From contig CALXUP010000008.1 of the NCBI GenBank assembly GCA_944391715.1, forward strand, positions 1,036 to 65,035: a stretch of DNA of 64,000 nucleotides. The letters are read 5' to 3'. Both the position numbers and the translations under genes were made by a program. Shown here one piece after another: positions 40,031-59,975 of the stretch. Below the pieces are notes generated by a model that saw only the letters and a list, made by a program, of their open reading frames with translations, made no database searches and was not told where the DNA came from. Each line of letters opens with the position of its first letter. Position 1 is the stretch's first letter. Source of the DNA: an uncultured Alphaproteobacteria bacterium. GTDB taxonomy: Bacteria > Pseudomonadota > Alphaproteobacteria > RF32 > CAG-239.

Positions 40031-40043
40031 AAAGATTAAGAAA

Positions 40044-40073
40044 AACTCCGGAATCCCTTTCCGGAGTTTTTTG
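40044..40073 (+). terminator. intrinsic terminator
   Basis: Stem aactccgg (40044-40051) / ccggagtt (40061-40068) plus a T-run. Confidence 0.75.
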
Positions 40074-40077
40074 CATT

Positions 40078-44451: not shown

Positions 44452-44454
44452 ACC

Positions 44455-44661: not shown

Positions 44662-44881
44662 CCACCTATTTAAAATTAAACCATCTTCTATCTGACTTTT
44701 GCAGACAAATCTGCCTGTTTTTTATATCATTAATCCCGCCTTGTCAATCTTAAATTCAAAATCGCCCCGATATTCATGCGCTTTTTCTGCCCCTAAAATT
44801 TCTGCCAACACCCCTCATCCTCAAAACCAAATTTGAATCGCCTTAACAAAAAAGTTACCACTCTAAAAAACGGCCAATAAA

Positions 44882-44914
44882 AAAAACCGCCCTTTCGGAC
44901 GGCTCTTTTTATTG
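44882..44914. repeat. 33-nt direct repeat, copy A (hairpin terminator module)
   Basis: aaaaaccgccctttcggacggctctttttattg is identical to 46312-46344. On the minus strand it forms a gagccgtccgaaagggcgg hairpin plus T-run after the 142-aa gene. Confidence 0.9.
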
Positions 44915-44948
44915 CCAACACATTGGGCCACCCACAAATATCTGTCCC

Positions 44949-45377
44949 TTAGCCCACAAAAATAAATCCTTTTCTTTGTATAGGTTCCCATTCTTCACCT
45001 GGCTTTCCAATTTTAAGACCATTCCAAATTTCATATTTGCCTGAGCCAAAAAATTCTAAAGCCTTCTCTGAGACAATAGAAAGAACTTCTTCTGTTATAC
45101 TCTCAATGGGTACAAATTCTAAAGTTTTATAAAAAACTATTCTACCCGGTTTAATATACCCTCTTGTCAGATTTTCAAATTCGTCAAAAGATATTCCGAA
45201 ATCTTCTTGAAGATAAATTTTATGCTCCCTGACATCTTTAACATTTATTGCACATCTTCCATCATCAAGAAAAGCAAATGCAATACGGCTTTTATGAAAT
45301 TCATCAACCATTTTTTTCTCCTTAGGAGTTAATGCTATTTGCTTTCCGTTTATAATAGTTGTTTCGTTACAGGACAT
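44949..45377 (-). CDS. hypothetical protein (142 aa), cassette 1
   Basis: ORF 4 nt downstream of the transglutaminase-like gene. No recognisable motif. Confidence 0.55.
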   Translation of the reverse strand: MSCNETTIINGKQIALTPKEKKMVDEFHKSRIAFAFLDDGRCAINVKDVREHKIYLQEDFGISFDEFENLTRGYIKPGRIVFYKTLEFVPIESITEEVLSIVSEKALEFFGSGKYEIWNGLKIGKPGEEWEPIQRKGFIFVG

Positions 45378-45380
45378 ATT

Positions 45381-46175
45381 CTATAAGTTTCTTTCTTGTG
45401 AAATCGGTTGTTGAATATTATGTTTTGAAATAATAAACGATGGAAAAATATTAGCGCCATCTCCACAGCCATAATACCAACTTGTTTTTGTTAATATGTT
45501 TTTTGCCTCTAAAAATGCACAATTGCGCCTTACGCTCTGTGTATGGATTTTATTTTCAAATTGTTGTTTTTGAGCCTGTGTTGCCTCTATTGATGATATC
45601 CTGGGTAAGAACATTCCATTATAAGGAATGGGATTTGCAGGATCATAAAAATAATCATCTTTACCCGTTTTTATAGAAATAAAACTATGTGCTTCTCCAA
45701 AATCTTCTTCTAAAGAACGTAACAATTCACCACCAAAATATTTTGTTTCAAAACCACATTTTTGAAAATATGCCTGTGCTAAAATGGATATTTCAGCACA
45801 TTGACAAACGCCATCTTCAAACGATTGAGATAATTTTTTACTACCTTCTGTACCATAATATCCCTGTCTTTTTGATACATTTAAGGATAAATCAGGATAC
45901 ATTTTTCTTAAAACATTGTCAAAAGCATACATATGAGCAAATGTTTTAACATCAAAATCTGGAGCAACGCCATTTAACCATTTTTTCATGCTTTCATTAT
46001 TCTCAATATTTATTGCATTTTTTTTAACTTTTTGAAAAAAAACTTCAAAACTATCAATATCAGCCGTAATCTTAAGATCCAACTTACCTAAACAAGAACC
46101 TCCAATTAACACTTTATCATTGTTTTGAATATTAGATATACGACAATTTGTTTCATTTAGTTTTTCAAAATCCAT
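45381..46175 (-). CDS. transglutaminase-like (papain-fold) cysteine peptidase family protein, cassette 1
   Basis: Candidate Cys-His-Asp triad with typical spacing: GVCQCAEISILAQAYFQKCGF ... GEAHSFISI ... YFYDPANP. Confidence 0.5.
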   Translation of the reverse strand: MDFEKLNETNCRISNIQNNDKVLIGGSCLGKLDLKITADIDSFEVFFQKVKKNAINIENNESMKKWLNGVAPDFDVKTFAHMYAFDNVLRKMYPDLSLNVSKRQGYYGTEGSKKLSQSFEDGVCQCAEISILAQAYFQKCGFETKYFGGELLRSLEEDFGEAHSFISIKTGKDDYFYDPANPIPYNGMFLPRISSIEATQAQKQQFENKIHTQSVRRNCAFLEAKNILTKTSWYYGCGDGANIFPSFIISKHNIQQPISQERNL

Positions 46176-46311
46176 GATATATTCCTCATTTTTTTTAATT
46201 TAGTATCAGTATATCATGATTTTTATCGAATGTAAATTCGTAACCAGAAATGGCATATCAAATACTATCCATAATAACTAAGATAACCCTATTGATAACT
46301 TCATTAATGCA

Positions 46312-46348
46312 CAAAAACCGCCCTTTCGGACGGCTCTTTTTATTGGCA
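46312..46348. repeat. 33-nt direct repeat, copy B, ending in a tRNA-Trp 3'-end mimic TGGCAG (46343-46348)
   Basis: Identical to 44882-44914. It then reads tggcag, matching the complement of the tRNA 3' terminus at 59900-59905. Confidence 0.9.
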
Positions 46349-46445
46349 GAAGATATTAGGACAATAAGCGGACTTTATTCACAACAAAAGTCCTTGACTT
46401 TTATTTCTAACTTTTATAACTTAACAACAATAAAATTTATAATTT

Positions 46446-46706
46446 ATGAATTACTGTGGAATACTAATCCTGCTTTGTCTGTTTGCCCTTATCATTTATG
46501 ATATAGCCAAATTAAAACAAATTCAGGATTATGGTGAACCCAAATATTTACCCCCTCTGGTGTCAAGTTACTTAAAGAGGAAAGTAATGACAGTTCTAGA
46601 CGATATTAGAGGGATTTTCCTCAATGTAAAAATTCGTTCACCAACAAAGCTTAAAGGAATGCAGTCAACGCCTTGGGTATTTTATCCTAAAGACTGTATG
46701 TGTTAA
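46446..46706 (+). CDS. small membrane-anchored hypothetical protein (86 aa), cassette 2
   Basis: N-terminal TM (ILILLCLFALIIYDI). Followed by a terminator. Confidence 0.4.
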   Translation: MNYCGILILLCLFALIIYDIAKLKQIQDYGEPKYLPPLVSSYLKRKVMTVLDDIRGIFLNVKIRSPTKLKGMQSTPWVFYPKDCMC

Positions 46707-46734
46707 TTAACCAAATTATTAATTCTGCGACATC

Positions 46735-46767
46735 CCCGCGAAATACCTGTTTCGCGGGTTTTCTTTT
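46735..46767 (+). terminator. intrinsic terminator
   Basis: Stem cccgcgaaa (46735-46743) / tttcgcggg (46750-46758) plus a T-run. Confidence 0.75.
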
Positions 46768-46894
46768 ATTCATTAAACTAAATATTCCCCAAAACCTATG
46801 TTTTTTTAATAGCTGAAACGTTTGATAAATAAGGAAAAGAATATGAAAATATTTTTAACTAACTTATTAAAAAATAAGGAAATTTGAAAATAAA

Positions 46895-47100
46895 AGTCCG
46901 TGTAACAAGCGGGAAACTTCTCTTAGTTTTGCTAGGCTTTAGCCGCAGCAAAACTTAGTTGTTCGCGCAAGTAGAAAGCTTAAAGCTTTCGTAGTGGCGC
47001 AAACAGCCTCTTTGATAACATCGCACACGGACTCGATTAACTTATTGATTTATAAAGAAAAAAAGACGCTTTTCGGCGTCTTTATCTTGATTGGCAGGGG
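46895..47100. repeat. boundary module C: ~140-nt multi-hairpin element, then a hairpin terminator, then TGGCAGGGG (47092-47100)
   Basis: Closing stem agtccgtgt (46895-46903) / acacggact (47025-47033). Internal 12-bp hairpin 46922-46933/46947-46958 and hairpin 46974-46990. Terminator aagacgc-ttttc-ggcgtctt. The last 9 nt are identical to 59900-59908. Confidence 0.8.
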
Positions 47101-47304
47101 ATATAGGATAATATACGGACTACTATCTTATAAAAATCATTGCCATTTTATGAAAGCTCAACATAATATATGTTGAAAAACTTCACCTAAAACAAATCTC
47201 AATAAGCGACAAATAGAAAAAAATTATCTATTCTGCAAAACTTTTAATTCCTTAAATCCCCAAAAAAAAATCCGCCCATATTAAAAATACGGAACGGAAT
47301 TTTT

Positions 47305-47520
47305 TTAAGACTTTTTCAGCAAATTTTTAATGTCTTTTATGTCCTCTGAAATCTCATCTAATTTGTTAGGTGCTTTCGGAATAGGTGCATTTCCAGTTGC
47401 CGACATCATTTTTACCAGATAGCAAAGACAAATAAAGATACCTACAAACATTCCTATAATACTTAATGTTTCTGAATTAGCCCGTAAATCGGCTATGATA
47501 AAAGTAATAAATTCTTTCAT
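47305..47520 (-). CDS. small single-TM hypothetical protein (71 aa), cassette 3
   Basis: Central TM (IIGMFVGIFICLCYLV). Confidence 0.4.
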   Translation of the reverse strand: MKEFITFIIADLRANSETLSIIGMFVGIFICLCYLVKMMSATGNAPIPKAPNKLDEISEDIKDIKNLLKKS

Positions 47521-47544
47521 AAAAAAATAAAATTTAGAAAATTT

Positions 47545-47667
47545 TTAATACAGAATAAAACCACAAAAGGAACACTCAATATATCCAGGACGGATTAGAT
47601 GAGCAATTCTACCGCACTCCGGACAAATAACAATACGAAAATAGCCATGTTCTTTTTTAGACATCAT
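47545..47667 (-). CDS. possible 40-aa zinc-ribbon peptide (below the track cut-off)
   Basis: Manual translation gives MMSKKEHGYFRIVICPECGRIAHLIRPGYIECSFCGFILY, with a CPEC...CSFC pair. No clear SD. Confidence 0.3.
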   Translation of the reverse strand: MMSKKEHGYFRIVICPECGRIAHLIRPGYIECSFCGFILY

Positions 47668-47845
47668 AATTTTAAATAATTTAAGTGATACAATAATTTT
47701 ATTTAGTATTTTTTATATATACATATTTCTATTAAATATCAAGTAAATTATTCATCATGATTTAGCTGCTTATTTCAAGCGTCCCAAAACAAAATATAAT
47801 TTCATCTAATTAACTACTTATAAATCATAGAATTTTGTTTTGATT

Positions 47846-47960
47846 AGTCCGTATAATAAGCGGGAATTGATGTCTATGACAACACTTCACACGGACTCAA
47901 CTAACTTATTGAATTATAATAAAAAAAGACGCCTTAAAGCGTCTTCATCTTGAGTGGCAG
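47846..47960. repeat. boundary module D: short version of module C, then a hairpin terminator, then TGGCAG (47955-47960)
   Basis: agtccgt (47846-47852) ... cacacggact (47888-47897). The stretch cacacggactcaactaacttattgaattataat...aagacgccttaaagcgtctt...tggcag is about 80% identical to 47024-47097. Confidence 0.8.
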
Positions 47961-48074
47961 CGCAAACTTTATGACCTTAGGAAAAAATACTCTGATGAAT
48001 TAACTGAATTATACCCTATTGTTCAAAGTTTAGAAGACGATCCTCAAGTTCAGAAAATTCTAAAAACGAATTGA
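47955..48074 (+). other. start-less open frame continuing from TGG-CAG (WQ RKLYDLRKKYSDELTELYPIVQSLEDDPQVQKILKTN stop); candidate detached C-terminal coding segment of the large serine recombinase
   Basis: The frame is open from 47913 to the TGA at 48072-48074 with no ATG/GTG/TTG or SD. The TGG-CAG phase is identical to that of the recombinase ORF at 59900-59905. Confidence 0.4.
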
Positions 48075-48122
48075 GCTCAATATTTTTATTATATAATCAA
48101 TGGCTAAAGGAAATAAGAAAAA

Positions 48123-48374
48123 ATGATTAAAGACTTTTATATTTGCCTGGACGATAAGGCATTAAATTACGCACTAAAGCATTTTAGCAATTCTTTTACA
48201 AAGATATTGCGTTGTTATACTGGGTTAGAAGTTGAAATGATTGTTAAAACAATGGAATCCAATAAAAGCAAGAACTTCTATACGCTTCGAGCAACACAAA
48301 GTAGAATTTTAAAAGCAACCATTAAAAACCTTGAAGTCTTAGGTGCTATTTTTGAAAGAGCGGATAAAGAATAA
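48123..48374 (+). CDS. hypothetical protein (83 aa)
   Basis: ORF with an upstream aaggaaataagaaaaaATG. A hairpin follows (cccac...gtggg). Confidence 0.45.
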   Translation: MIKDFYICLDDKALNYALKHFSNSFTKILRCYTGLEVEMIVKTMESNKSKNFYTLRATQSRILKATIKNLEVLGAIFERADKE

Positions 48375-48572
48375 AAAGCAACCCACCAGCTAAGCTAGTG
48401 GGTATTCATAAGTGTGGGTACCCCTTACGGTACCAGTGAATGCCTAAAAGTAGGACTTTCAATTTCCAGTAACTCCTTGATTTTTCTTTGAAGAACACTC
48501 TAGTCGATATTCAAAGAAAACATCACAAAGAGTTGCTAAAAATTTATGAGCAAGTAAAAAAGTTAGAATTTA

Positions 48573-48974
48573 CTAAAACCCATGACTAAGCAAGTACTCA
48601 ATATATTTTTCAAATCCCATTTTCGAAAGATATTTTAAAAATACATCTCTTGGTGGAGTATTAGCCATATAGGGTTTACCAGAACCAGTATACAAACCGC
48701 CACCAGGACCGGTATACAAACCGCCACCAGGCCCCGTATATAATCCACCTCCTGGACCAGTATACAAACCTCCACCAGGTCCTGTGTACAGTCCACCTCC
48801 TGGTCCCGTATACAAACCGCCACCAGGCCCCGTATACAAACCACCTCCAGGACCGGTGTATAAACCACCACCGGGTCCGGTATATGCACCTCCTCCAGGA
48901 CCAGTATATAATCCACCACCAGGACCAGTGTATAATCCCCCACCAGGTCCAGTATATCTATTTCTCGGCCACAT
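48573..48974 (-). CDS. glycine-rich repeat protein: 11 tandem GPGGGLYT octapeptides plus a 37-aa unique C-terminal domain
   Basis: ATG preceded by AAGGAG (8-nt spacing). The unique C-terminus is ...PPRDVFLKYLSKMGFEKYIEYLLSHGF. The repeat units differ almost only at synonymous sites. Confidence 0.7.
   Translation of the reverse strand: MWPRNRYTGPGGGLYTGPGGGLYTGPGGGAYTGPGGGLYTGPGGGLYTGPGGGLYTGPGGGLYTGPGGGLYTGPGGGLYTGPGGGLYTGPGGGLYTGSGKPYMANTPPRDVFLKYLSKMGFEKYIEYLLSHGF
48687..48950. repeat. 24-nt tandem repeat x 11 (coding, imperfect at third codon positions)
   Basis: Read directly from the sequence. All frames are open on both strands because of the periodicity. Confidence 0.95.
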
Positions 48975-49037
48975 AATTTAACTCCTTATTCTAAATATAT
49001 TAAATGGGTGCCCAATTTGAGTTGGGCACCCTGACTC

Positions 49038-49184
49038 TTATTTTTTCTTAGAAGGTTTCTGACTTAAAGCAGAACCTGCTGCAGTTTTACTGGTACTACT
49101 AAAGCGACCATCGCGAAGAACTTTTGATGCTGCGGAAGCTGCTTTTGCACTAGTTACTTTGCAAGTTTTAGAACATTTATTCAT
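49038..49184 (-). CDS. possible 48-aa Lys/Ser/Ala-rich small protein
   Basis: Manual translation gives MNKCSKTCKVTSAKAASAASKVLRDGRFSSTSKTAAGSALSQKPSKKK. AAGGA lies about 9 nt upstream. Flanked by hairpins at 49004-49031 and 49218-49245. Confidence 0.4.
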   Translation of the reverse strand: MNKCSKTCKVTSAKAASAASKVLRDGRFSSTSKTAAGSALSQKPSKKK

Positions 49185-49250
49185 TTTTCTATTCCTTTCT
49201 TATTAATAGGAGAAGATGGGTTGGAGGAAATTTATCCTCCAACCAAGATG

Positions 49251-49391
49251 CTATCTATCAGGTACAAGAAAGCAAAAAGCCTTCCATCCGTAGTCTCTAG
49301 CATACAAAATCACACCATTTTTCAGGCGAATCTTGGCTGTGTAGAGCCAGCGATAACCGATAGGAGCAGCTTCACGACAACTATGTGTCAT
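49251..49391 (-). CDS. possible 46-aa small protein
   Basis: Manual translation gives MTHSCREAAPIGYRWLYTAKIRLKNGVILYARDYGWKAFCFLVPDR. A strong SD, AAGGAG, lies 7 nt upstream. Confidence 0.45.
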   Translation of the reverse strand: MTHSCREAAPIGYRWLYTAKIRLKNGVILYARDYGWKAFCFLVPDR

Positions 49392-49536
49392 GTTATTTCT
49401 CCTTGTTAAGAGCCAAAAATTAGTTGATTTTTAATAAATAGGACTGTAGAATAGAATCTGCTAAGATTTAGAAACGACAGTTTCTATTTACCAAAAGGGG
49501 AAAAGCTGGCTCTGTTTAGCTTTTCCTCAAAACTTT

Positions 49537-49860
49537 TTAAATTAACTCATAAATGCCTTTTCTGTTTTCAACACTCCTAATTAATGGATGTTCTTCCCTC
49601 GACATATTATACGCCTTAAGGGTGATTTGTCGTTTTGTCTTTTTCCCATCATCTTCGTCCTTATATTTACGATAAAATCCGACTGTCAGCTCATCCACAG
49701 AAAGAGGTCTTCCTGCTAATTTAAGCAATTCAATGATTCTTTTCGCAAATATATCCGTGTTAATTCCATCAGCTATATCTGCCGGAATGTCATCTATGGA
49801 GAACAAATCAAATATATCTTTTTCTTTAGTCTCTTCTTCGGATATCAGCGAATCACTCAT
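49537..49860 (-). CDS. hypothetical protein (107 aa), possibly a winged-helix DNA-binding protein
   Basis: Acidic N-terminus followed by IIELLKLAGRPLSVDELTVGFYRKY, which is HTH-like. First gene of a minus-strand string of small ORFs. Confidence 0.45.
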   Translation of the reverse strand: MSDSLISEEETKEKDIFDLFSIDDIPADIADGINTDIFAKRIIELLKLAGRPLSVDELTVGFYRKYKDEDDGKKTKRQITLKAYNMSREEHPLIRSVENRKGIYELI

Positions 49861-50306
49861 TATGTCAACCTTTCATAAATAGACTCGATTATGTCGATGA
49901 TGGTAGCATCATACTTACCCCATGTCAATCCAAAATTATTTTGAATCATGTTTTTTTATTTTTTTGAACACTTGAAAATATTTTAACAGTATTTTTTCGA
50001 GTCTTATGTGGCAAAGTACTTTTCTATATAAACTGCATATTTTTATCCAGATATTTTGTTTTCATTAAGACCTAGTTATTTCAATATGTTATACAAAACA
50101 AATACTATTTTATAAGAATTCTGTATAAATTATATAGATACAAAACATATCTTGCGCAAAGACAAAACGATAAATTTGCGAAAATTTTGATTATTTTAAA
50201 AAGTTAATAAAGCATTAATTGTTGAGTATTAAATTGATGATATCCACAGTTTTTTATCAAAAATGGCAAAACAGAAAAATAATTTTAAAGATTAACACCC
50301 TTTTCC

Positions 50307-50906
50307 TCACACCATCTCAATAATTTTCTTTTGTGCATCGGTGTTGTATTCAATATAGCGTTGAGTCGTGGCAAGAGTGGAATGTCCGGCAAGCATACGG
50401 ATGTCGTTTAAGGTTCCGCCTGCCAAGCTGATATTTTTTGCTGCGGTGGTGATAAAGGTTCTACGTCCACTATGTGAGGAGCAACCTTCGAAGCCGATTT
50501 CTTTATATAAATTATAAAAGAAGTTCACGATTGCTTGTGGGCTGGTCTTGTTGGTACGTTCTGTGGTGATAATCCGATTCGTTAGAGCAAAATGCTCATT
50601 TTTCTTCTGCTCAGCCAACAATTCTGCCAGTAAAATTGCCAAATCCTTATGCAGAGGAATAATGCGGCCGGATTGTTTACCTTTAGAGGCTTTATTAATA
50701 AGATTAATTTCTTGGCTTAATTGTCCTTCTGAATCACAAACCATCAGCCAATTCAAACTTGCGATTTCTTTAGCTCGTAATCCTGCTTTATAACTCAACA
50801 TAAAAATAATTTTATTGCGGAGCGGATATCTTGTCCGTTCCAAGTAACCCAATGTTAGCTCTTGCTGTTTTGGGGTAAGTATTTTTGCTTGTTTATTAAG
50901 TGCCAT
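50307..50906 (-). CDS. short tyrosine recombinase (catalytic domain only, 199 aa)
   Basis: GLRAKEI (Arg I), HSGRRTF (His-x-x-Arg) and LAGHSTLATTQRYIE (His/Tyr nucleophile). No N-terminal SAM-like domain. Confidence 0.8.
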   Translation of the reverse strand: MALNKQAKILTPKQQELTLGYLERTRYPLRNKIIFMLSYKAGLRAKEIASLNWLMVCDSEGQLSQEINLINKASKGKQSGRIIPLHKDLAILLAELLAEQKKNEHFALTNRIITTERTNKTSPQAIVNFFYNLYKEIGFEGCSSHSGRRTFITTAAKNISLAGGTLNDIRMLAGHSTLATTQRYIEYNTDAQKKIIEMV

Positions 50907-50916
50907 TTCTTCTAAA

Positions 50917-51039
50917 ACTCATTATGTTATTGAAAGTACATCATAAATTATAATGAGTATAAAATAAAAGTCCAGGTATAAAGTCTTGTAACGCTTGAAA
51001 AATAAGGACTCATTATAAAACTTAGATTATATAATGAGT
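50917..51039. repeat. two inverted-repeat pairs ACTCATTAT/ATAATGAGT plus an ATAAAAGTCC...GGACTC module
   Basis: Repeat pairs at 50917-50925/50950-50958 and 51008-51016/51031-51039. ataaaagtcc at 50964-50973 is identical to 46891-46899 plus one base, and ggactc is at 51006-51011. Located immediately upstream of the tyrosine recombinase gene. Confidence 0.8.
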
Positions 51040-51252
51040 TTATCCGCCACAGACTTTGCAAGGTCTGGCACCTTGTGATTTTGCCTTGTCGTTGGTGGTT
51101 TTTATACAGTTTTTGGTACAACGTTTTGCCCATTTACAGGTTGGGCTATGATAAATATAAGTCTTGGTATTCATAACCACGGTTGAGTTGTCGGCAGCCA
51201 AAACAGGTGCGGATAAATGCAGGAAAATTAAGAAACATACGGCTCTTTTCAT
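51040..51252 (-). CDS. small secreted Cys-rich protein with an Ada-like YH..C...C zinc motif
   Basis: Signal peptide ending VLAADN, then YIYHSPTCKWAKRC...ARPCKVCGG. Confidence 0.55.
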   Translation of the reverse strand: MKRAVCFLIFLHLSAPVLAADNSTVVMNTKTYIYHSPTCKWAKRCTKNCIKTTNDKAKSQGARPCKVCGG

Positions 51253-51998: not shown

Positions 51999-52099
51999 AC
52001 GTTAAGCCCCTTATAAAAGGATTATATCGGCTTATTTATAAAAATTCCAGAGGGTTTTTGACTTTTAGCTTGATTGTCTTCAAAAGGCTTTATAATATA

Positions 52100-52423
52100 A
52101 ATTCAGGTTCAGAATTTTTCTGGGCTTAGTACCTTTAGTGGTACGGGGCTTTCATCGGCTCTTATAGTCGTCGGTGTTGGATATAACATCGTCATATTGT
52201 CAGCTACTCATCATAGCCGACAGTAAATATATCCCCGATACATAGCAATATGGTCGGGGAGCTTTTAGCGAATGTTCAGGAACCATATTACTATCTCTGA
52301 AAGAATATGGTTCTAAAGGTTAAAAGAATCATTTACGACTATATGATTGATGAACTCTCCGACCACCTCTAATACAGGTGGTTTTCTTTTAATTGCAATT
52401 AAAGAAGAAGGGATTCTAATCAT
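52100..52423 (+). promoter_or_regulatory. structured ~320-nt leader upstream of the autotransporter, ending in a terminator-like hairpin
   Basis: Mutually exclusive pairings cgggg (52144-52148)/ccccg (52233-52237) versus tccccga (52232-52238)/tcgggga (52254-52260). A 10-bp hairpin at 52280-52289/52304-52313. accacct/aggtggt plus a T-run at 52362-52390. Confidence 0.35.
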
Positions 52424-54907
52424 ATGAGAAAATCTTTATTAATGACAACGGCATTGGTGGCACTTTCGATGTCTGGCAATGCTTATGCAGATGTAACCAT
52501 CAATTCAGACACAGTTCTGGAAAGTGAATATGCCGACAATGTAATAATTTCCGGCGGTAATGTTACAGCTAAAGACAGCTCTACAGTCAGCCTTAATTAT
52601 CCTGACGGAAAAAATTTAACAGTAAACGGCGGGAACTTATCTTTAAACGATTCCACCATTTACACTTTTAACGGCAATACAGAAATCAGTGGAGATGCTG
52701 TTCTTAATTTAAATAATGACAGCGATATCGACACCAACAAATTAACTATCAGCGGAGGGACAATCAACCTTAATAAGGGGGAACTTCGCCAGAATAATAG
52801 TTTTACCATGACCGGCGGTACAATTAACGCAAACGGCCAAACGCAAATAGGTTCTGTCGGAAGAGATACCGAAAAAGTCGAAGGAACCGTCACAAGCTAT
52901 GCCGGAGGCACAACAGATATCAGCGGCGGCGTGATAAATGTTAAAGGCGGCGTAGGTCTTGGCAGTTCTGCCAATGATGTTTACGATAATGGTAATGTTA
53001 TTTTTGGTACCTCTATTAAATTAAGAGGTGATGCAACTCTGGATATTAAAGAGGGAGCAACCTTATTTGCTTATGAAAATTACAAAATTAATGAGCCGGA
53101 TTTAGATAATTCTGACCTTGATGTTGTAACCTTTGGTAATAAAGCCACAATAACAATGAATGACAACACTTCAAAAATTAATCTGGCCGGAACGTTAAGT
53201 GCCAATATTAATGGTGATGACCGCGGCAAAATTCATTTTCAAAATTCCGGTGCTCAGATTGACGGTGATGTTGAAGCTGCCAGCCTGATTTTTGAAGACA
53301 GCCATACCTTAAGCCAAGCTGTTTCCGGTGAAATCGGTGGCTTGGATATTTTTGAAATTAAAAAAGGCACCATGGTTTATGATAAGGAAATCAACGGCGG
53401 CGCTTCCAGCGTTATTGTCGGCGAAGGTGCAACGCTTGATATAGGAACAAATACTTTGCATTCCGGCGGTGAAAAAGCCGTTTCCGGTGAAGGTGTTCAC
53501 TTCAAAGACAATTCGACTTTAGCCTTTACCGTAACCGATAAAGACACTTATGGTAAAATCCACGCCAATTACGTTAATATCAGCGAAAACGGTACAAATT
53601 TAAATATGACCTTAAACGGAGCCGCTTTGGCCAAAGGTGAAACAACAACCTTAAAATTATTTAATGGTGAAGATTCCGATACGGTAGAAATCGAAGGTAA
53701 GTTTGCCAACCTGAGCCAAAATTCCCGTTATGAATTTATCGATAATGGCGACGGAACTTTTGATGTTACTTCTGTCGGTTCTGCCACAGATGCAGTAGTT
53801 GATGCCGGTGGTTCTGCCAATAATGCCGGAACAGCCGAGGCATGGGACAGCGTCAGTGCTTCAACCAGCTCTCCGGTTGCTGCCGCAGTTACGGAACAAT
53901 TGGCACAGCTTTCCAACAGCACAAATGCTGCTGAGCAGAAAGCCTATGTTGACGCTTTGACGGCGGTTGCTCCGGAAGTTGCTCCGATGGTTCAAAAGAC
54001 ACAGACAGAAACAGCTAATCAGGTCTTTGGTGCCGTATCAACCCGTTTAACCGGTGGTTCAATCTCAACAGGTGGCGAAGGTATGGCTTCCGGCGATAAT
54101 ATTTTCAAACGTGGTGCAATGTGGGTTCAGGGCTTGTTCAACAAATCCAAACTGGACGACACATCCAAGGCGAAGGGTTTTGATGCAGATTCTCAAGGTA
54201 TTGCTTTCGGTGCCGAGAAGTTTGTAACCGATGATACCAAAGTTGGTATCGGTTACGCTTATACCAACACCGATATTGATGGTTTCATGCGTGATACGGA
54301 TGTTGATACACATACTGCCATCTTGTATGGTGAATATAAACCATCCAACTGGTATGTAAATGGTATTGCGACCTATGGCTGGTCTGATTATGAAGAAAGC
54401 AAGAGTGTCGCCGGAGTTGGTGTCAAAGCTGACTACGATGTCGAAACTTTTGGCTTACAGGCAATGACTGGTTACGATATGAACATCAACGGCTTAGGCA
54501 TTACGCCGGAAGCTGGCTTGCGTTATGTTCATATCAAACAGGATGCTTATAAAGATTCTGCCGACCAACGTGTATCTGCCAATGACAGCGACATTTTGAC
54601 CGGTGTTATTGGTGCTAAGGTTAGCAAGAACTTTGAGCTGTCCAATGGTATGAACATTAAGCCGGAAGCCAGAATTGCCGCGACTTATGACCTGTTTAAC
54701 GATGACGTTAATTCTGTCGTAACCTTGGCTAATAGTTCAGCTTATGCTGTTGAAGGTGAAGCTCTTGACCGCTTCGGAATGGAATTTGGTGCCGGTGTAA
54801 CTGCGGAAGTCAACGACAATGTCGAACTCTCGCTTGGTTATGAAGGCAAATTCCGTGAGGATTACCAAGACCATACAGGCTTGATTAACGCCAAGTATAA
54901 ATTTTAA
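52424..54907 (+). CDS. autotransporter (type Va) outer-membrane protein
   Basis: Signal peptide ...GNAYA/DV. Gly/Asn/Thr-rich beta-helix-like passenger. C-terminal ~270-aa beta-barrel with alternating pattern, ending ...GLINAKYKF. Confidence 0.88.
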   Translation: MRKSLLMTTALVALSMSGNAYADVTINSDTVLESEYADNVIISGGNVTAKDSSTVSLNYPDGKNLTVNGGNLSLNDSTIYTFNGNTEISGDAVLNLNNDSDIDTNKLTISGGTINLNKGELRQNNSFTMTGGTINANGQTQIGSVGRDTEKVEGTVTSYAGGTTDISGGVINVKGGVGLGSSANDVYDNGNVIFGTSIKLRGDATLDIKEGATLFAYENYKINEPDLDNSDLDVVTFGNKATITMNDNTSKINLAGTLSANINGDDRGKIHFQNSGAQIDGDVEAASLIFEDSHTLSQAVSGEIGGLDIFEIKKGTMVYDKEINGGASSVIVGEGATLDIGTNTLHSGGEKAVSGEGVHFKDNSTLAFTVTDKDTYGKIHANYVNISENGTNLNMTLNGAALAKGETTTLKLFNGEDSDTVEIEGKFANLSQNSRYEFIDNGDGTFDVTSVGSATDAVVDAGGSANNAGTAEAWDSVSASTSSPVAAAVTEQLAQLSNSTNAAEQKAYVDALTAVAPEVAPMVQKTQTETANQVFGAVSTRLTGGSISTGGEGMASGDNIFKRGAMWVQGLFNKSKLDDTSKAKGFDADSQGIAFGAEKFVTDDTKVGIGYAYTNTDIDGFMRDTDVDTHTAILYGEYKPSNWYVNGIATYGWSDYEESKSVAGVGVKADYDVETFGLQAMTGYDMNINGLGITPEAGLRYVHIKQDAYKDSADQRVSANDSDILTGVIGAKVSKNFELSNGMNIKPEARIAATYDLFNDDVNSVVTLANSSAYAVEGEALDRFGMEFGAGVTAEVNDNVELSLGYEGKFREDYQDHTGLINAKYKF

Positions 54908-54928
54908 GCGTTAAACAGTCCAAACGAA

Positions 54929-54966
54929 GCCGCCCCGGATATTTTTTTATTCGGGGCTGCTTTTTC
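54929..54966 (+). terminator. intrinsic terminator after the autotransporter
   Basis: Stem 54929-54938 / 54951-54960 (gccgccccgg / tcggggctgc) plus a T-run. Confidence 0.7.
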
Positions 54967-55161
54967 TTTTAAAAGTGCTCTTGACAATGAAATTTTTTTA
55001 TTATATCGATTCCAACAAATCCCACCGGGTCAAGCATATTCCGGGTCTTGCTGCTTGAAAAGAAAACATGATGAACCCATTGGCTCTACAGCTTAGATTC
55101 CTCATGTTTTTTGGTTCTCTATGGCTGTAGTTATTTTAACCACATAATCATGGAGAAACGC

Positions 55162-55944
55162 ATGACAAAAGAAAAGAAAATGTTAAGTTTGCAGCAAACA
55201 CTTGAATTTTTTGCTGATGATGTAAAACCTCTCCCGTATCATTTAGATAAAGAACGTCCTCATCACATCGAAGATGAAGAAATGGACACGGCAAAAGTTA
55301 CTTTGCGTTCTTGGATTGAAACAGGCCTCTTGAAACTCTACGGTATTCCCGGCAAAATCGAAATTAACGATGTCTCCTCGTTGGATGACAATTTTTTAAA
55401 GGTCACGCAAGAGAACGGACACCAAGCATTATATCCGTACAACGACTGGATTGAACTGAACACACCGACTTCTTTCTTTAGCCACCGCTACCCGCTGGAA
55501 ATAATCCGCGACAATAAAGGGGAACCGTTGAAACGAGTTCTTTTACCCAAAGAATTATCCGGTTATGATTTTGACTGGCAACATAGCATAGTCGCCCAAA
55601 ATCTGACCTGCGTGTCATTAACCGACAATGGCATATATATTCGTACAGAAGGATTCGCCTTCATCACGGTCCAATTTGATGAATTGGATGTGTTGTGCAG
55701 AGCCGATTCTATTGATTTTGAAAAGGCAGAAGAACAATTGAAGGATGCTATATGCCAGAAATGCGGAAAACTGGAACTGAAGCAACATTACCGGAGCTGG
55801 GCCATTAAGATGAAAGAAGCCGGTTACACTCTAAATCAAGCGGCAATAGAGATTCGAAGAATCTTTGACCACTACCGCACACCATATCCAACGGAGCGGA
55901 CAATCAGGAATCACATTCAAGATATTATTCCGCCAAAACAGTAA
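55162..55944 (+). CDS. hypothetical protein (260 aa from the ATG at 55162) with a C-terminal HTH-like segment
   Basis: GGAG lies 6 nt upstream of the ATG at 55162. The C-terminus AGYTLNQAAIEIRRIF...TERTIRNHI is HTH-like. Confidence 0.5.
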   Translation: MTKEKKMLSLQQTLEFFADDVKPLPYHLDKERPHHIEDEEMDTAKVTLRSWIETGLLKLYGIPGKIEINDVSSLDDNFLKVTQENGHQALYPYNDWIELNTPTSFFSHRYPLEIIRDNKGEPLKRVLLPKELSGYDFDWQHSIVAQNLTCVSLTDNGIYIRTEGFAFITVQFDELDVLCRADSIDFEKAEEQLKDAICQKCGKLELKQHYRSWAIKMKEAGYTLNQAAIEIRRIFDHYRTPYPTERTIRNHIQDIIPPKQ

Positions 55945-55962
55945 AGCAAGCAAACACCAACC

Positions 55963-55995
55963 AAATGACCTCAAACTTTGAGGTCATTTTTTTTG
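55963..55995 (+). terminator. intrinsic terminator
   Basis: Stem aatgacctc / gaggtcatt plus a run of 8 T. Confidence 0.8.
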
Positions 55996-56010
55996 AATTT
56001 TTGCATTTTT

Positions 56011-56059
56011 CTAAAAAGTTCAGAAAAACGTCTGATTTTTTCAAAAAACATCCGATTTT
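56011..56059. repeat. iteron-like 20-nt-period direct repeats upstream of the Rep-like gene
   Basis: aaaaacgtctgatttt (56024-56039) and aaaaacatccgatttt (56044-56059), 13/16 identical. A partial third copy, aaaaagttcag, starts at 56013. Confidence 0.6.
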
Positions 56060-56158
56060 CTTCAATTCGCTTCAAATGACACAGCAGCCGCCTTCTGATA
56101 TTCTTTTGTCATAACAACAGCTTAGCGGCTACAAACAAGCAACCAAAGGATAAGGAAA

Positions 56159-56344
56159 TTGAGCAAACACCTTAAAGAATATTACGAAGAAATTCGCAGT
56201 TTCTGCCCCGAGCTTTCCGAAGAGGAAGCCATCGAGGCTGGTGATGCTCTGCTCCAAATCGCTAAGCTGCTGTCTGACACGGTTCAGGAAACACCGGAAC
56301 TGAAAACGTTAATTGAAACAGGAAAGGAGAACGAAATCGAATAA
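56159..56344 (+). CDS. small acidic hypothetical protein (61 aa, TTG start)
   Basis: AAGGATAAGGAAA lies upstream. The ORF overlaps the start of the next ORF. Confidence 0.4.
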   Translation: MSKHLKEYYEEIRSFCPELSEEEAIEAGDALLQIAKLLSDTVQETPELKTLIETGKENEIE

Positions 56345-57455
56345 AAAAAATGTTGCCGACACCTTCATTCTGCTAATTCCATACCAAGACATTAAGATTA
56401 CAAAACCTGAACGGTTTTCGCCCAATCTTGAAACTTTATGGAATTTAGGCAACGCACAATCGGTAAATTGCTCTAGCTACGCGACAGCAATTGAAAAGCA
56501 GAAACATTATTATCCTAAATTATCATTAACTGCTCATCGCCGCGTTGGAGAATATAGCGTCATGTTGCGAATAGAATTTTCGGCTATGAAACTGATTAAC
56601 CAACCGTCAAACAACCTTGAAGAAGTTTGTGATGAGGATTTTGAAACCATCGTTAAGACCTTGCAAAAGCGTATATCTGAACTTGGAGCAAGAGTTTCGC
56701 CAGAAAGCATCCGAAAGGCAAAAGTCACTCGTGTCGATTATGGCAAAAATTGCAAAGTACAGATAAAGCCTGCATTGCTGCTGCAAGAATTAGCTAAAGC
56801 AGACATAAGCAAACGCCTAGACTCTGCCAACAAAACTTACCGTAATGACGGACATTCATTGCATTTTTTAACAACGCATAAGAACGTCGTACTTTATGAT
56901 AAGTTAGCAGACATAAGAAAAGCTAATTTTAGCCCACGCCGGGCTGTAGGTGAGAATGCTCAATTACTTGATTGGACATCTCTAGCCGACGAGCAATATC
57001 TGCGTTTTGAGGTTCAGCTCGGTAATTCAGACACAATTCGGCAAACCTTAAATAAAGCAGAGGTTAACGTCCCAGAATTGACTTTTGAAAATCTATTTCA
57101 AAGTGAAATCTGTCGCAAGGTTAACCTTTATTACTGGGGTGAACTTATGCAAGCGTGCCTGATACACCATCTCTGCAATGAAAATGTCGCAGATTTGTTC
57201 AAGCAGCTACTTAACAACGGCTACAAAATCTTAAAAGCTCTGCAACTCATCGGACTAACCAGTGTCTTAAGTGAAATGGGCATGAGAGAATTTCGCTTCC
57301 ATGCCGGAAAAACACTATCACCTGCAATTTACGACTTGCTGCGGAAAATTAAAGACATCACCCCAAGAGAGGATTGGCTCATGAAGCATTATTTAGAAAT
57401 TCAGAGGATAATAGAAGAAAATAACATAATTCAACTTAAAAGGATGAAAAAATGA
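56313..57455 (+). CDS. putative replication-initiation / Rep_trans-like protein (start uncertain)
   Basis: Pattern KVTRVDYGKN ... VVLYDKLADIRK ... YLRFEVQLGN resembles the RxDxxxD / YDK / RxExxL blocks of the phage CRI / replication initiation factor families. Iteron-like repeats lie upstream. Confidence 0.45.
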   Translation: MKQERRTKSNKKNVADTFILLIPYQDIKITKPERFSPNLETLWNLGNAQSVNCSSYATAIEKQKHYYPKLSLTAHRRVGEYSVMLRIEFSAMKLINQPSNNLEEVCDEDFETIVKTLQKRISELGARVSPESIRKAKVTRVDYGKNCKVQIKPALLLQELAKADISKRLDSANKTYRNDGHSLHFLTTHKNVVLYDKLADIRKANFSPRRAVGENAQLLDWTSLADEQYLRFEVQLGNSDTIRQTLNKAEVNVPELTFENLFQSEICRKVNLYYWGELMQACLIHHLCNENVADLFKQLLNNGYKILKALQLIGLTSVLSEMGMREFRFHAGKTLSPAIYDLLRKIKDITPREDWLMKHYLEIQRIIEENNIIQLKRMKK

Positions 57456-58285
57456 ACAATTTGAACGATTCAATAAAACATATTATTTTGCTAACCAGAG
57501 TGTCCTGCTCCAAACAGGACGTTGAAGAATCAACGGAACAGCAATTGGCTATATGCCAAAAATATATCAAAAACCTCGGCATTAACAAATTTGAGGTTTA
57601 TACGCTGAAAGAAAGTTCTTCACGCGGTAACCGAAAAGAATTTCAGCAAATGATCAACGATATAAAAAAATGTGACGGCTGTACGGCTCTGGTTTTTACC
57701 AAGGTAGACAGGCTCCTACGTAGATTCAATGAGGTACCGGAACTAGACAAACTCCGACAGCAAGGAAAAATTCAGCTTCATGCCGTTAAAGACAATCTGG
57801 TACTTACTAAAGATTCTACGGCTTCAGACATCCACAGATTTCGTCTTCTTGCTGCTGATGCGGAAATGTTTAGTAACCGGATTTCTGAAGAAACCCGTGA
57901 AAAAATATTGATTTGTTGCCAACAAGGTCGCTATCCGGGACTAGCCCCCATTGGGTACAGGAATCAACGAAACAAATATGGGCTGGCGTGGATTTATACC
58001 GATGTACAAAAAGCTTTATTGGTTGCCGAAATATTTAAAAAATTTGTAGAAGGTAACAGTCTTAAACAACTTGCTGTTTGGTGCCTTAAGACAGGATTAA
58101 CTTCTGTCAAGAATAACCCTCTGGGCACTAAAGCCATAATTCGGATTTTGCAAAATCCGTTTTATATGGGGCAATTCCGCCATAACGGAAAACTTTACGC
58201 CCATTATTATGAGCGGTTGGTTAAGGAAGATGTTTGGAAAAAATGCCAAATCCGTCTGAAACATAACCGAGAAAATAAGGAATAA
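57452..58285 (+). CDS. serine recombinase, truncated type (resolvase catalytic domain plus recombinase domain; no zinc ribbon or coiled coil)
   Basis: LLTRVSCSKQD catalytic Ser region. Collinear with the first ~280 aa of the downstream large serine recombinase (VDRLLRR, APIGY, ILQNPFYMG). Confidence 0.8.
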   Translation: MNNLNDSIKHIILLTRVSCSKQDVEESTEQQLAICQKYIKNLGINKFEVYTLKESSSRGNRKEFQQMINDIKKCDGCTALVFTKVDRLLRRFNEVPELDKLRQQGKIQLHAVKDNLVLTKDSTASDIHRFRLLAADAEMFSNRISEETREKILICCQQGRYPGLAPIGYRNQRNKYGLAWIYTDVQKALLVAEIFKKFVEGNSLKQLAVWCLKTGLTSVKNNPLGTKAIIRILQNPFYMGQFRHNGKLYAHYYERLVKEDVWKKCQIRLKHNRENKE

Positions 58286-58393
58286 GGGCACCTACCTTGT
58301 CAAATGAAGGCTGGATTAAATTCCGGCCTTCATTGACTTTAAGAAACCAGCAATCCATTAATTAAAAAAACAGACAAAAAAAGGAACAACAAT

Positions 58394-59914
58394 ATGCCAA
58401 GACAGATAAAGAAATTTCAAGCAACAGCAACAAAAGGTATCATTTGGGCAAGAGTTTCATCAAGAGAACAAGAGGATGGCTACTCTTTAGATGCTCAGAT
58501 TGAAAATTCAAAAAGCTACGCCGAGCGTAGAGGAATTGAAATTATTAAAATTTTTGAGATTATTGAAAGTTCAACACAGGGGGATAGAAAACAGTTTCAT
58601 GATATGATTAACTGGGTAAAACGGCAAAAACAACGCATAGCAATTATTTCCGATAAAGTTGACAGACTACAACGACGAGTTTCAGAAGTTCCGGTGCTGG
58701 AAGAATTACGAAAAGCCGGAAAAATCGAACTGCATTTTTCGCGAGAAAATAAAGTCATAGAAAAAGATACAAACGGTTCTGATTTAGCCTGCTACAGAAT
58801 GATTGTTGTTATGGCTGAAAACTATACGGACTGTATTTCGGATAACGTAAAACGGAGCCTTAAACAGATGAGAAAAGAGGGGAAATGGGCTCATAGAGCA
58901 CCCGTAGGTTACCTAAATGTAAAAGACAGCAAAGGTAACAGTGATGTTATTATTGACCCTGACAGGGGGTTCCTTATAACGGCTCTGTTCAAAGAATACG
59001 CAAGCGGAATTTATAACTTAGAACAGATAACGAAAAAAGCACAGGAAATAGGTCTGACAATGCCCGGAAGCAAAAAATTGTACAAACAGACAATACGAAA
59101 TATCTTAAGCAATCGCTTTTATGCCGGAGAGATGTACGGTTATGGCGAGTATTACAAACATCAATATAAAACTTTAATTGACTGGAAGACATTTAACCGG
59201 TGCCAAGAAGTTTTAGAAGGACGCATGAATCATAAAGAACAAAAACACGAACATCTGTTCAAAGGAATAATGAAATGCAAAGAATGCGGTACGATGATAT
59301 CGCCTTACATCAGTATTCATGCGGCAAAAAAGAAAGGCGGAGAAAAAATCGCTTATAAATACCTTTTTTGCCCGAAATGCAAGGGTACGCACATAAATGA
59401 AGGGAAAGGCATTGAAAAAATAAAACAGGCCTTAGGCTCGCTTAAATCGCTTCCTAACGGCGTGTTAGAAAAGATGACGCATTGCCTTCAGGATTTAGTA
59501 TATGAAGACCATAGGATTGAGCTTGAACATAAAAAATATTTAGAGCGAAAATTGCTTGAATGTGACACGAAACAAGAACGGTGGCATGAGCTGTATGCCG
59601 AAGCTAGTATTACACGGAATATACATAGCAAAAAAATAAAAGAACTAGCCCAAGAAAAAGAAAAAATAGCCGAGCAGCTTTTAGGCTACAGTTACTTAGC
59701 ACAACAGAACTTTATAACACTTAAATACTTGACTAGCCTATATTTTCATGCAGACCAGATTTGGGATTTTCCGAAAAATGAGCAAAAACAGAAGATTTTA
59801 AAATTACTCTGTTCGGAAATTTTATTAGACGGGAAAAACATAGTTATTTCAATAAGAAAGCCTATCTTAGAACTGGCTAAAATAGGCTCTTGTCAAATAT
59901 GGCAGGGGCAGTAA
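58394..59914 (+). CDS. large serine recombinase (integrase)
   Basis: 506 aa with WARVSSREQ, VDRLQRR, a recombinase domain, zinc ribbon CKECG...CPKCKG and a coiled-coil region. The last 5 codons (TGG CAG GGG CAG TAA) overlap the 3' end of tRNA-Trp. Confidence 0.88.
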   Translation: MPRQIKKFQATATKGIIWARVSSREQEDGYSLDAQIENSKSYAERRGIEIIKIFEIIESSTQGDRKQFHDMINWVKRQKQRIAIISDKVDRLQRRVSEVPVLEELRKAGKIELHFSRENKVIEKDTNGSDLACYRMIVVMAENYTDCISDNVKRSLKQMRKEGKWAHRAPVGYLNVKDSKGNSDVIIDPDRGFLITALFKEYASGIYNLEQITKKAQEIGLTMPGSKKLYKQTIRNILSNRFYAGEMYGYGEYYKHQYKTLIDWKTFNRCQEVLEGRMNHKEQKHEHLFKGIMKCKECGTMISPYISIHAAKKKGGEKIAYKYLFCPKCKGTHINEGKGIEKIKQALGSLKSLPNGVLEKMTHCLQDLVYEDHRIELEHKKYLERKLLECDTKQERWHELYAEASITRNIHSKKIKELAQEKEKIAEQLLGYSYLAQQNFITLKYLTSLYFHADQIWDFPKNEQKQKILKLLCSEILLDGKNIVISIRKPILELAKIGSCQIWQGQ

Positions 59915-59975
59915 GATTCGAACTCACGACCCTCGGTTTTGGAGACCGATGCTCTACCAACTGAGCTATACCCCT
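59900..59975 (-). tRNA. trnW: tRNA-Trp (anticodon CCA)
   Basis: Manual fold of the reverse complement: AGGGGTA-TA-GCTC-AGTTGGTA-GAGC-A-TCGGT-CTCCAAA-ACCGA-GGGTC-GTGAG-TTCGAAT-CTTAC-TGCCCCT-G-CCA. 76 nt with an encoded CCA. All stems pair, with one G-U in the acceptor stem and one in the T stem. Confidence 0.9.

Follow-up and report, generated by a model that had tools for sequence, protein, structure and literature searches.

Stacked small cassettes and an 11.9-kb serine-recombinase element between tRNA-Trp and secE of an uncultured human-gut alphaproteobacterium: a probable accretion array at the tRNA 3' end

A 64,000-nt stretch of DNA from an uncultured Alphaproteobacteria bacterium (RF32; CAG-239), here called the window (contig CALXUP010000008.1 of assembly GCA_944391715.1, positions 1,036 to 65,035), was analyzed for the 15,238 nt that separate its tRNA-Trp(CCA) gene from secE. 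This interval is probably an accretion array that grew by successive site-specific integrations at the six terminal bases of the tRNA gene (CTGCCA, or TGGCAG on the plus strand). It contains an integrative element of 11,939 nt with two serine recombinase genes, named BIG, which adjoins the tRNA, followed toward secE by three small cassettes, named C, B and A (854, 742 and 1430 nt, respectively), none of which encodes a recombinase. An earlier sequence-only reading of the window had placed a tRNA-Trp(CCA) at 59900-59975 of the minus strand, about 15 kb from secE-nusG, and had divided the interval into one 11.9-kb element with recombinases and three mini-cassettes of 0.75-1.4 kb without them; the ARAGORN search, in which this tRNA was the only one detected in the window, and the comparisons given below agree with it on each of these points. 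In more distant relatives (loci fetched via NusG) the tRNA-secE gap is mostly of 34-330 nt.

Relatives were gathered by exact matches to the SecE, RecX and 71-aa proteins in public assemblies, and are designated by L numbers. Two conspecific contigs (L001 and L002) were found without positions 47961-59899: their alignments stop at 59900 and restart at 47960, with flanks 95-100% identical to those of the window, and the 6-nt overlap at the breakpoint in blastn is CTGCCA. The attachment (att) sites attB, attL and attR were read directly from this empty-site comparison, and we infer attP. BIG is the newest insert, a discrete element that is absent from conspecific genomes; L143, which equals the window over 10.2 kb at 100%, may come from the same source and was not taken as independent support for BIG. 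In a sister species (L007; NusG 99% identical, about 93% DNA identity) the tRNA, its terminator hairpin (CCGTCCGAAAGGGCGG) and secE are all contained inside 251 nt, and none of the cassette arm motifs is present, which makes this locus the ancestral empty site. The G+C content of the small cassettes is 27-33%, that of BIG 38.9%, and that of the flanks 42-45%.

Conspecific arrays with flanks 95-100% identical differed from each other by whole cassettes. The order BIG-C-B-A was present in the window and L143, C-B-A in L001/L140 and L141, C-A in L139 and L144, D-C-A in L088/L146, and X-Y-unit-Z-A in L003; L002/L142 and L147 carried C-B-A with a chimeric first arm, and in L138 an upstream element was followed by D-C-A and then by further array. 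Cassette B was missing from L088/L146, L139, L144 and L003. Every one of the conspecific breakpoints was located at a tRNA-end copy or inside the conserved arm adjoining it. The cargo of cassette A sits behind a complete leading (P') arm in L003 and L088, and cassette A too is an internal unit, because in L138 it leads into more array and not into secE. Cassettes C, B and A, each delimited by tRNA-end copies, are distinct units that close relatives possess, lack or have replaced. The sequence-only reading had accepted that an identical order of the same 15 kb in relatives would count against repeated integration; no such constancy was seen, conspecifics lacking BIG and differing in their arrays, and its proposal is supported by the empty sites, by the polymorphism of whole cassettes and by the distribution of cassette C.

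A contig of a different species (L145) carried a copy of cassette C that is 97.6% identical and whose homology extends exactly from one core to the other (window 47960-47091), with no other match to the window at the blastn threshold used and with a different tRNA T-arm. Its conspecific L028 is about 73% identical to the window in secE-nusG, and core genes are about 73-77% identical. The neighbors of cassette C in L145 were different ones, with a unit resembling a tRNA on its upstream side and a peptidase-S51 cassette on its downstream side. Cassette C seems to have passed from one species to another as a unit with tRNA-end copies at both ends, and such a core-to-core transfer would imply mobility.

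The possibility that the TGGCAG copies arose by coincidence, next to hairpins that are ordinary intergenic terminators or members of a genome-wide REP-like (repetitive extragenic palindromic) family, can be practically dismissed. The hexamer occurs in the window at the frequency expected by chance (9 copies versus 8.5 expected on the plus strand), so that it is not enriched, and hexamer counts alone carry no evidence. The sequence-only reading had named a chance frequency of the copies, together with boundaries unmatched by presence/absence breakpoints, as adverse to its proposal; the hexamer is at chance frequency, but the boundaries do coincide with such breakpoints. It is the context and the comparison with relatives that carry the evidence: breakpoints fall on the copies, and neither the other ~60 kb of the window, nor the flanks of any locus, nor the empty site contains the arm motifs, which refutes the chance explanation. 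The 9-mer TGGCAGGGG was seen twice in the window versus 0.06 expected. The copies proposed earlier at 47092-47100 and 47955-47960 are correct, whereas the third lies at 46344-46349 and does not start at 46343.

The terminator scan gave 8 sites versus 1.5 expected, with minus-strand terminator-like hairpins called at 47946-47925, 47083-47062 and 44914-44875. The hairpin claimed for each tRNA-end copy was called beside the copies at 47955 and 47092; the one at 46317-46346 was missed by the scan, yet it is a 97% copy of 44882-44917, that is, a terminator copy. The ~90 nt that precede 47097 and 47960 are 82-84% identical to each other. The homology noted after the copies at 46344 and 47092 was found as described, and it belongs to a family that recurs at many junctions in relatives, where the tRNA end is preserved over up to 16-19 nt at internal junctions; the longer decayed tRNA copies at internal junctions of L003 match at 17/19 and 16/18 nt.

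The small cassettes have a common layout. In the direction of the tRNA, a cassette starts just past a CTGCCA, with ~10 nt that resemble the native downstream sequence (sTyAAGATrAAG), followed by a terminator hairpin, of which two types occur, ~22 AT-rich nt, a 51-nt stem-loop (GAGTCCGTGTGAG...TTCCCGCTTGTTACACGGACT), a promoter-like stretch of ~60 nt, the cargo, and the P arm, made of GATAGTAGTCCGT and a degraded copy of the T-arm and acceptor of the tRNA, which ends in the next CTGCCA. The two arms measure roughly 180 and 35 nt and are characterized by the tRNA-end copy, the terminator, the stem-loop and a GTCCGTG motif; in about 120 loci their motifs were confined to the tRNA-Trp/secE interval, in many species, and were absent from the flanks and from the rest of the window. 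The median junction spacing was about 0.86 kb over 49 intervals, as determined by an automated junction caller that makes some false calls. In an Rfam search with permissive E-values of 44400-48700 and of the array of one relative, the tRNA was the sole match, and the arms do not appear to be a known RNA family. The stem-loop (GAGTCCGTGTGAG...ACACGGACT), present in every cassette P' arm, was represented by 41 unique copies in relatives. Its stem of 8-11 bp is conserved in sequence (an 8-bp stem in the RNAalifold analysis of 37 copies, which had no double compensatory changes), and the substitutions on the tRNA-sense strand are biased to G.U, with pairing kept in 29 and broken in 7; this pattern would neither prove nor exclude an RNA role.

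A unit of ~140 nt resembling a tRNA also recurs in arrays of related species (L010:2367-2700, L003:1205-1367, L138:7020-7160, and L008, L023, L028, L089, L095, L096, L101, L117, L124 and L145). Its start resembles the 5' strand of the tRNA-Trp acceptor (AGGGGAAG), its end is the full tRNA 3' end, and its T-arm halves (GTGAGTTCGAC ... AATCTTAC) are split by ~85 GC-rich nt; in L028 and L145 the T-stem halves co-vary with the host tRNA. No Rfam match was obtained for it, and RNAalifold gave two local hairpins with almost no covariation. It may be a split pseudo-tRNA, an att relic or a non-coding RNA. A hammerhead ribozyme and a tmRNA were considered for it on the basis of CUGAUGAG-like and GGGG...UUCGAC motifs, and were rejected for their incomplete core and the lack of an Rfam match.

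BIG would have been inserted by its own pair of serine recombinases, with a crossover within CTGCCA, because of which the tRNA stays intact. Its predicted attP junction is ...GGTCATAAAGTTTGCG-CTGCCA-TATTTGACAAGAGCC...; the P arm abuts the core, and the far end, GGTCATAAAGTTTGCG followed by CTGCCA, is conserved in L017 and L105. The recombinase module abuts attL, and the att repeat is inside the large recombinase gene, which is antisense to the tRNA and has its last 15 nt, including the stop codon, within the tRNA 3' end. A module of the BIG type, with recombinases 82% identical, was found beside tRNA-Trp and recX in at least 23 contigs (L126-L130 type), in which the recombinase open reading frame (ORF) runs through the entire tRNA. 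The recombinase of the window ends at a TAA made by the T-stem of the tRNA of its host species, and orthologues in species with another T-stem have 30-120 extra codons, antisense through the tRNA. The reading of this ORF through the tRNA accounts for the range of homologue lengths, 506-632 aa, and the annotated C-termini are an artefact of the integration site, given that the position of the stop depends on the T-stem of the host tRNA.

The two recombinase genes of BIG, one of them large and with a Recombinase domain, are neighbors, and the pair is conserved in L126-L130, where a 276-aa orthologue of the small enzyme is kept and syntenic genes of 255/274, 65 and 373 aa adjoin it. For the corresponding module proteins of the window, no Pfam, NCBIfam, PHROG, PADLOC or PDB match was obtained, save an insignificant PHROG match of the 380-aa protein (E = 0.0065). 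The NCBIfam CcrA/CcrB/XisF matches of the 277-aa recombinase were weak and below cutoff. The CcrA and CcrB scores were 50-64 bits versus cutoffs of 700-900, and the recombinases of BIG are not Ccr orthologues.

The small cassettes would be non-autonomous units whose two ends jointly form an attP-like site, for which the predicted junction in cassette C is ...TATTATCCTATATCCC-CTGCCA-CTCAAGATGAAGACGC.... The dyad symmetry of the reconstructed attP sites, judged by eye, was too weak to use. The P' arm of the cassettes would mimic the first ~12-30 nt of the sequence native to the region downstream of the tRNA, followed by the terminator, the stem-loop and the promoter-like stretch, and because of this imitation each integration would restore a tRNA followed by a terminator, together with a target that can be used again, while shifting the older cassettes toward secE. 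The recombinase would be supplied in trans by larger elements with cassette-type arms. The enzymes of BIG are unlikely to be these helpers, because its arms are unrelated to the cassette arms. A better candidate was found in L119, in a 12.4-kb element with P' and P arms of the cassette type at its ends. This element codes for another large serine recombinase, about 40% identical to that of BIG, and there is no tyrosine integrase among its ORFs; a homologue of its recombinase gene is located on the tRNA strand in L090, L109 and L013, 1.2-2.7 kb from a P-arm junction. On these sequence comparisons, the L119-type serine recombinase is the probable helper that mobilizes the small cassettes in trans. 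Homologous recombination between arms 73-97% identical would add cassette loss and chimeric arms to this process, as suggested by the chimeric first arm of L002.

Several results weigh against this account of the array. At its secE side cassette A has a degenerate core (TTGGCA in tRNA orientation) and no P arm. A search of IMG/VR with the attP junction of BIG returned 0 matches, and no circular contig was recognized by terminal overlap among the contigs fetched. No recombinase with cassette-type arms was seen in this species, so that we infer the mobilization in trans. The relatives are all metagenome assemblies, in which repeats break contigs (L014, L020 and L021 begin within an arm), and some arrays could be misassembled; several configurations nonetheless recur in independent samples. 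Fragments of the L119-type recombinase gene in L103 and L115 indicate that some small units are decay products, and the long attP-like region of the cassettes, with three GTCCGTG copies, has a layout more typical of tyrosine integrases than of serine recombinases. Two other explanations were weighed.

According to the first of them, the small cassettes are leftovers of recombinase islands after internal deletions, and the differences between strains arose solely by homologous recombination and deletion between arms. This is an unlikely explanation for the array as a whole, although the fragments inside the L103 and L115 arrays are C-terminal pieces of L119-type recombinases, the tRNA-proximal arm of L002 is chimeric in the manner that recombination between arms predicts, and cassette A, whose P' arm is complete in L003 and L088, has a truncated one in the window. 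Against it stand the identity of cassette C across species, far above that of core genes and with the homology bounded by CTGCCA cores, the variety of cargos that many species have within complete pairs of P' and P arms, and the lack of recombinase domains or remnants in the ORFs of cassettes A, B and C.

The second explanation attributes the movement of the cassettes, and possibly that of BIG, to a tyrosine recombinase (the 199-aa protein encoded in BIG or another from elsewhere), CTGCCA being the overlap and GTCCGTG the arm-type sites. An identical core of 6 nt would suit the overlap of a tyrosine recombinase, the attP-like region of about 250 nt has repeated motifs, tRNA targets are usually used by tyrosine integrases according to the account in PMC4383910, and other elements at tRNA-Trp have integrase-like genes (L024) or, in the case of a prophage, use the anticodon-loop half of the tRNA. 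Nevertheless we regard this explanation as rather improbable: the only cassette-armed element with a full ORF list, L119, has serine recombinases and no tyrosine integrase, homologues of these are near the P arm in L090, L109 and L013, the recombinase encoded across the core, both in BIG and in L126-L130, is the serine enzyme, and the 199-aa protein consists of the catalytic domain alone, is encoded 2.3 kb from the far end of BIG and is absent from arrays without BIG. Integration by serine recombinases at CTGCCA remains the reading preferred here.

Other elements were also seen at tRNA-Trp. In L137 (an IMG/VR UViG), L115:1-3460 and L098, phage-like DNA directly adjoins the 3' half of tRNA-Trp (52 nt), which is followed by a cassette arm; this half starts at the anticodon stem, which places the prophage crossover in the anticodon-loop region, distinct from CTGCCA. 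In L024:2254-8290 and L138:1-3630 a further element type has small resolvases and, beside the tRNA, a 587-aa integrase-like ORF, while its far end carries 16 nt copied from the tRNA end (CTTACTGCCCCTGCCA).

The sequence-only reading had compared the array to an integron-like cassette platform. The likeness is one of outcome (small cassettes, mostly of a single gene and without a recombinase, arrayed at one chromosomal site with turnover at the strain level) and not of mechanism. A true integron-like platform, in which a resident integrase beside the tRNA captures promoterless cassettes through the 51-nt stem-loop folded as an attC-like site, could draw on the sub-kilobase cassettes with one conserved hairpin each and on the G.U-biased changes in the stem. 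It is very improbable, since no integrase is adjacent in L001, L002, L003 or L088, the crossover takes place in the tRNA-end copy, about 65 nt from the hairpin, and the hairpin stem is conserved in sequence without compensatory changes. No intI with attI and Pc was found next to the array, and no attC that holds the crossover; the cassettes have their own promoter-like sequences and terminators and face both ways, as the ORFs of cassettes B, D and X are on the opposite strand. Single-strand transposition of the IS200/IS605 type, suggested by the short fixed target and the subterminal hairpins, was also considered and rejected: the cassette ends are decayed tRNA copies, the cassette-armed elements examined encode serine recombinases, and no TnpA-like gene was seen.

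The features of the locus are collected in Table 1.

Table 1. Features of the tRNA-Trp/secE interval and its anchors, in window positions.
Feature	Position	Strand	Basis or remarks
nusG	43918-44451	-	Pfam; with secE, chromosomal anchor of the array
secE	44455-44661	-	Pfam
secE upstream region	44662-44874		follows the ancestral terminator
Ancestral tRNA-Trp terminator	44875-44914	-	terminator scan; identical hairpin right after the tRNA in L007
Cassette A	44914-46343	-	truncated P' arm; terminator copy 46317-46346 overlaps the core
Cassette A ORF, 142 aa	44949-45377	-	
Cassette A ORF, 264 aa	45381-46175	-	
TGGCAG copy	46344-46349		tRNA-end copy separating cassettes B and A
Cassette B	46350-47091		
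Cassette B P arm	46350-46380		
Cassette B ORF, 86 aa	46446-46706	+	own terminator at 46735-46758
Cassette B stem-loop	46895-47033		loop insertion of ~100 nt
Cassette B terminator	47062-47083		
TGGCAGGGG	47092-47100		tRNA-end copy separating cassettes C and B
Cassette C	47101-47954	-	
Cassette C P arm	47101-47135		AGTCCGT...
Cassette C ORF, 71 aa	47305-47520		membrane protein
Cassette C ORF, 40 aa	47545-47667		Zn-ribbon
Cassette C stem-loop	47846-47897		P' arm, with promoter-like stretch
Cassette C terminator	47925-47946		P' arm
TGGCAG copy	47955-47960		attR core of BIG; heads cassette C
BIG	47961-59899		blastn breakpoints, att reconstruction
Variable end of BIG	47961-50306		ORFs of 83 aa (48123-48374, +) and 107 aa (49537-49860, -)
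YTGPGGGL-repeat ORF, 133 aa	48573-48974	-	within the variable end
Short tyrosine recombinase, 199 aa	50307-50906	-	Pfam covers residues 9-188
Ada-like Zn protein	51040-51252	-	Pfam; putative cargo/maintenance
Alpha/beta-hydrolase lipoprotein	51249-51998	-	Pfam; putative cargo/maintenance
Autotransporter, 827 aa	52424-54907	+	Pfam Autotransporter beta-domain, 1.7e-54; putative cargo
Integration-module genes: 277 aa, 61 aa (56159-56344) and 380 aa	55111-57455	+	conserved synteny
Small serine recombinase, 277 aa	57452-58285	+	Pfam Resolvase+Recombinase; partner of the 506-aa enzyme
Large serine recombinase, 506 aa	58394-59914	+	Pfam Resolvase+Recombinase; PHROG 95 integrase, 1e-55
Last 6 nt of the tRNA	59900-59905		recombination core and attL copy; empty-site junction L001/L002
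tRNA-Trp(CCA), intact	59900-59975	-	ARAGORN

Among the genes carried by BIG, homologues of the autotransporter were found in L017, L119 and L126-L129, and the trio of hydrolase, Ada-like and tyrosine recombinase genes recurs in L017, L127 and L129. The 133-aa ORF of the variable end is made nearly entirely of tandem YTGPGGGL octapeptides, encoded by a 24-nt repeat of about 13 units. The ORFs of the small cassettes had no match in searches of Pfam, NCBIfam, PHROGs, PADLOC and PDB. The 264-aa protein of cassette A has a homologue of 77% identity in a prophage accessory region (L131-L136, gene 10001-10795), which also includes Fic, peptidase S41, APH and methylase genes, adjoined by terminase and portal genes.

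Two rearrangements were observed in the surroundings of the array. In L130, from one related species, secE-nusG-rplKAJL is inverted and located on the recX side of tRNA-Trp, the linkage between tRNA and secE being broken, which may represent an inversion involving the array. The gap between rplL and rpoB (window 39031-40442), which contains an opposite-strand ORF of 188 aa with multiple transmembrane segments (39464-40030) and a 53-nt inverted repeat (40315-40441), is rearranged among the conspecific contigs L001-L005 and is a second strain-variable spot, within the ribosomal-protein/rpoB cluster.

Serial integration at tRNA and tmRNA genes with displaced copies of their 3' ends, as well as recombinase-less passengers (accretion, and cis-mobilizable elements or CIMEs), are already known (PMC3146451; PMC4383910; bioRxiv 10.1101/2020.12.28.424599). 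As in islands of the Islander type, an intact tRNA at one end, a displaced 3'-end copy and an unoccupied site (L001/L002 and L007) were found, although the tyrosine integrase of that type was not: the att end of BIG has serine recombinases, its sole tyrosine recombinase is the 199-aa catalytic domain, and cassettes A-C encode no tyrosine recombinase. tRNA-Trp is a known island site in Shewanella, as stated in PMC8978831, and a literature search for papers that combine tRNA-Trp, secE and a genomic island returned none.

The closest mechanistic analogues are the serine-recombinase cassette chromosomes or ssrA islands with their cis-mobilizable elements. The ssrA islands of Dehalococcoides are arranged in tandem, with direct repeats of the ssrA 3' end and the serine recombinases DsiB and DsiA; a recombinase of ~540 aa and a smaller one are encoded on the reverse strand beside attL, and the large gene contains the repeat. 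The half of the islands without this module was read as cis-mobilizable, the architecture being compared in that study to SCCmec CcrAB (McMurdie et al. 2011, PMC3146451). They share with the BIG locus the tandem units past a structured RNA gene and the paired recombinases at attL (PMC3146451), but differ in their tmRNA target, 20-nt repeat and multi-kilobase size, as opposed to the CCA end of tRNA-Trp and copies of 6-9 nt (up to 17 in relatives) found here. Furthermore, the recombinase-less units described here are mostly of 0.5-2 kb with long conserved arms, and their hosts are gut Alphaproteobacteria; the module genes RecF, ParB and Mom of the ssrA islands are not recognizable, and DsiA/DsiB were compared by description alone.

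SCCmec and the Enterococcus cassette chromosome, in the account given in PMC6222049, likewise have two large serine recombinases and integrate into the 3' end of a conserved gene present in a single copy; their composite tandem arrays include ccr-less pseudo-elements between copies of one short repeat. The locus described here differs in its tRNA target, in a second recombinase of just 277 aa and in enzymes that are not Ccr orthologues. CIMEs are flanked by att sites, devoid of recombination and transfer genes, found in tandem and kin to autonomous elements at the same site (PMC5704250; cited in PMC3146451). Cassettes B and C, with both arms and small ORFs alone, conform to this description, and the att arms shared with an autonomous element are provided by L119, with support from L090, L109 and L013. 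Classical CIMEs, in contrast, depend on tyrosine integrases of integrative and conjugative elements and are of several kb, whereas here the candidate helper is a serine enzyme and the unit is often a single small gene. The tycheposons of Prochlorococcus also involve successive tRNA integrations, by which older elements are displaced into the island, scattered partial tRNAs and plug-in cargo, but they have their own tyrosine (rarely serine) recombinase, replication genes and sizes of several kb, and no stem-loop arm is described for them (Hackl et al., bioRxiv 10.1101/2020.12.28.424599).

What appears to be new is that a family of serine-recombinase elements targets the CCA end of tRNA-Trp in combination with arrays composed mainly of sub-kilobase, single-gene cassettes with standardized arms, and that these have spread across a clade of gut Alphaproteobacteria. 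Tentatively, and with more doubt than confidence, the tRNA-Trp 3' end in human-gut Alphaproteobacteria could be seen as a dedicated capture site for cassettes, an integron analogue run by serine recombinases, where sub-kilobase cassettes, with standard arms that rebuild the tRNA end, its terminator and the target, are inserted, excised and exchanged between species in trans and the stem-loop and tRNA-like unit are part of the machinery. The locus represents an extreme form of accretion, in which single-gene cassettes of 0.5-1.5 kb with standard arms are stacked at the CCA end of one tRNA, turn over between strains and, in the case of at least one of them, seem to have been exchanged between species of uncultured gut Alphaproteobacteria. 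As a hypervariable marker, the tRNA-Trp/secE locus would be useful for tracking strains in gut metagenomes. If the serine-recombinase helper proves true, the system would solve the problem of integrons (small cassettes, a single site and a recombinase in trans) for a second time and by an independent mechanism, and it would offer natural matched attP/attB pairs for a family of serine recombinases that target tRNA genes.

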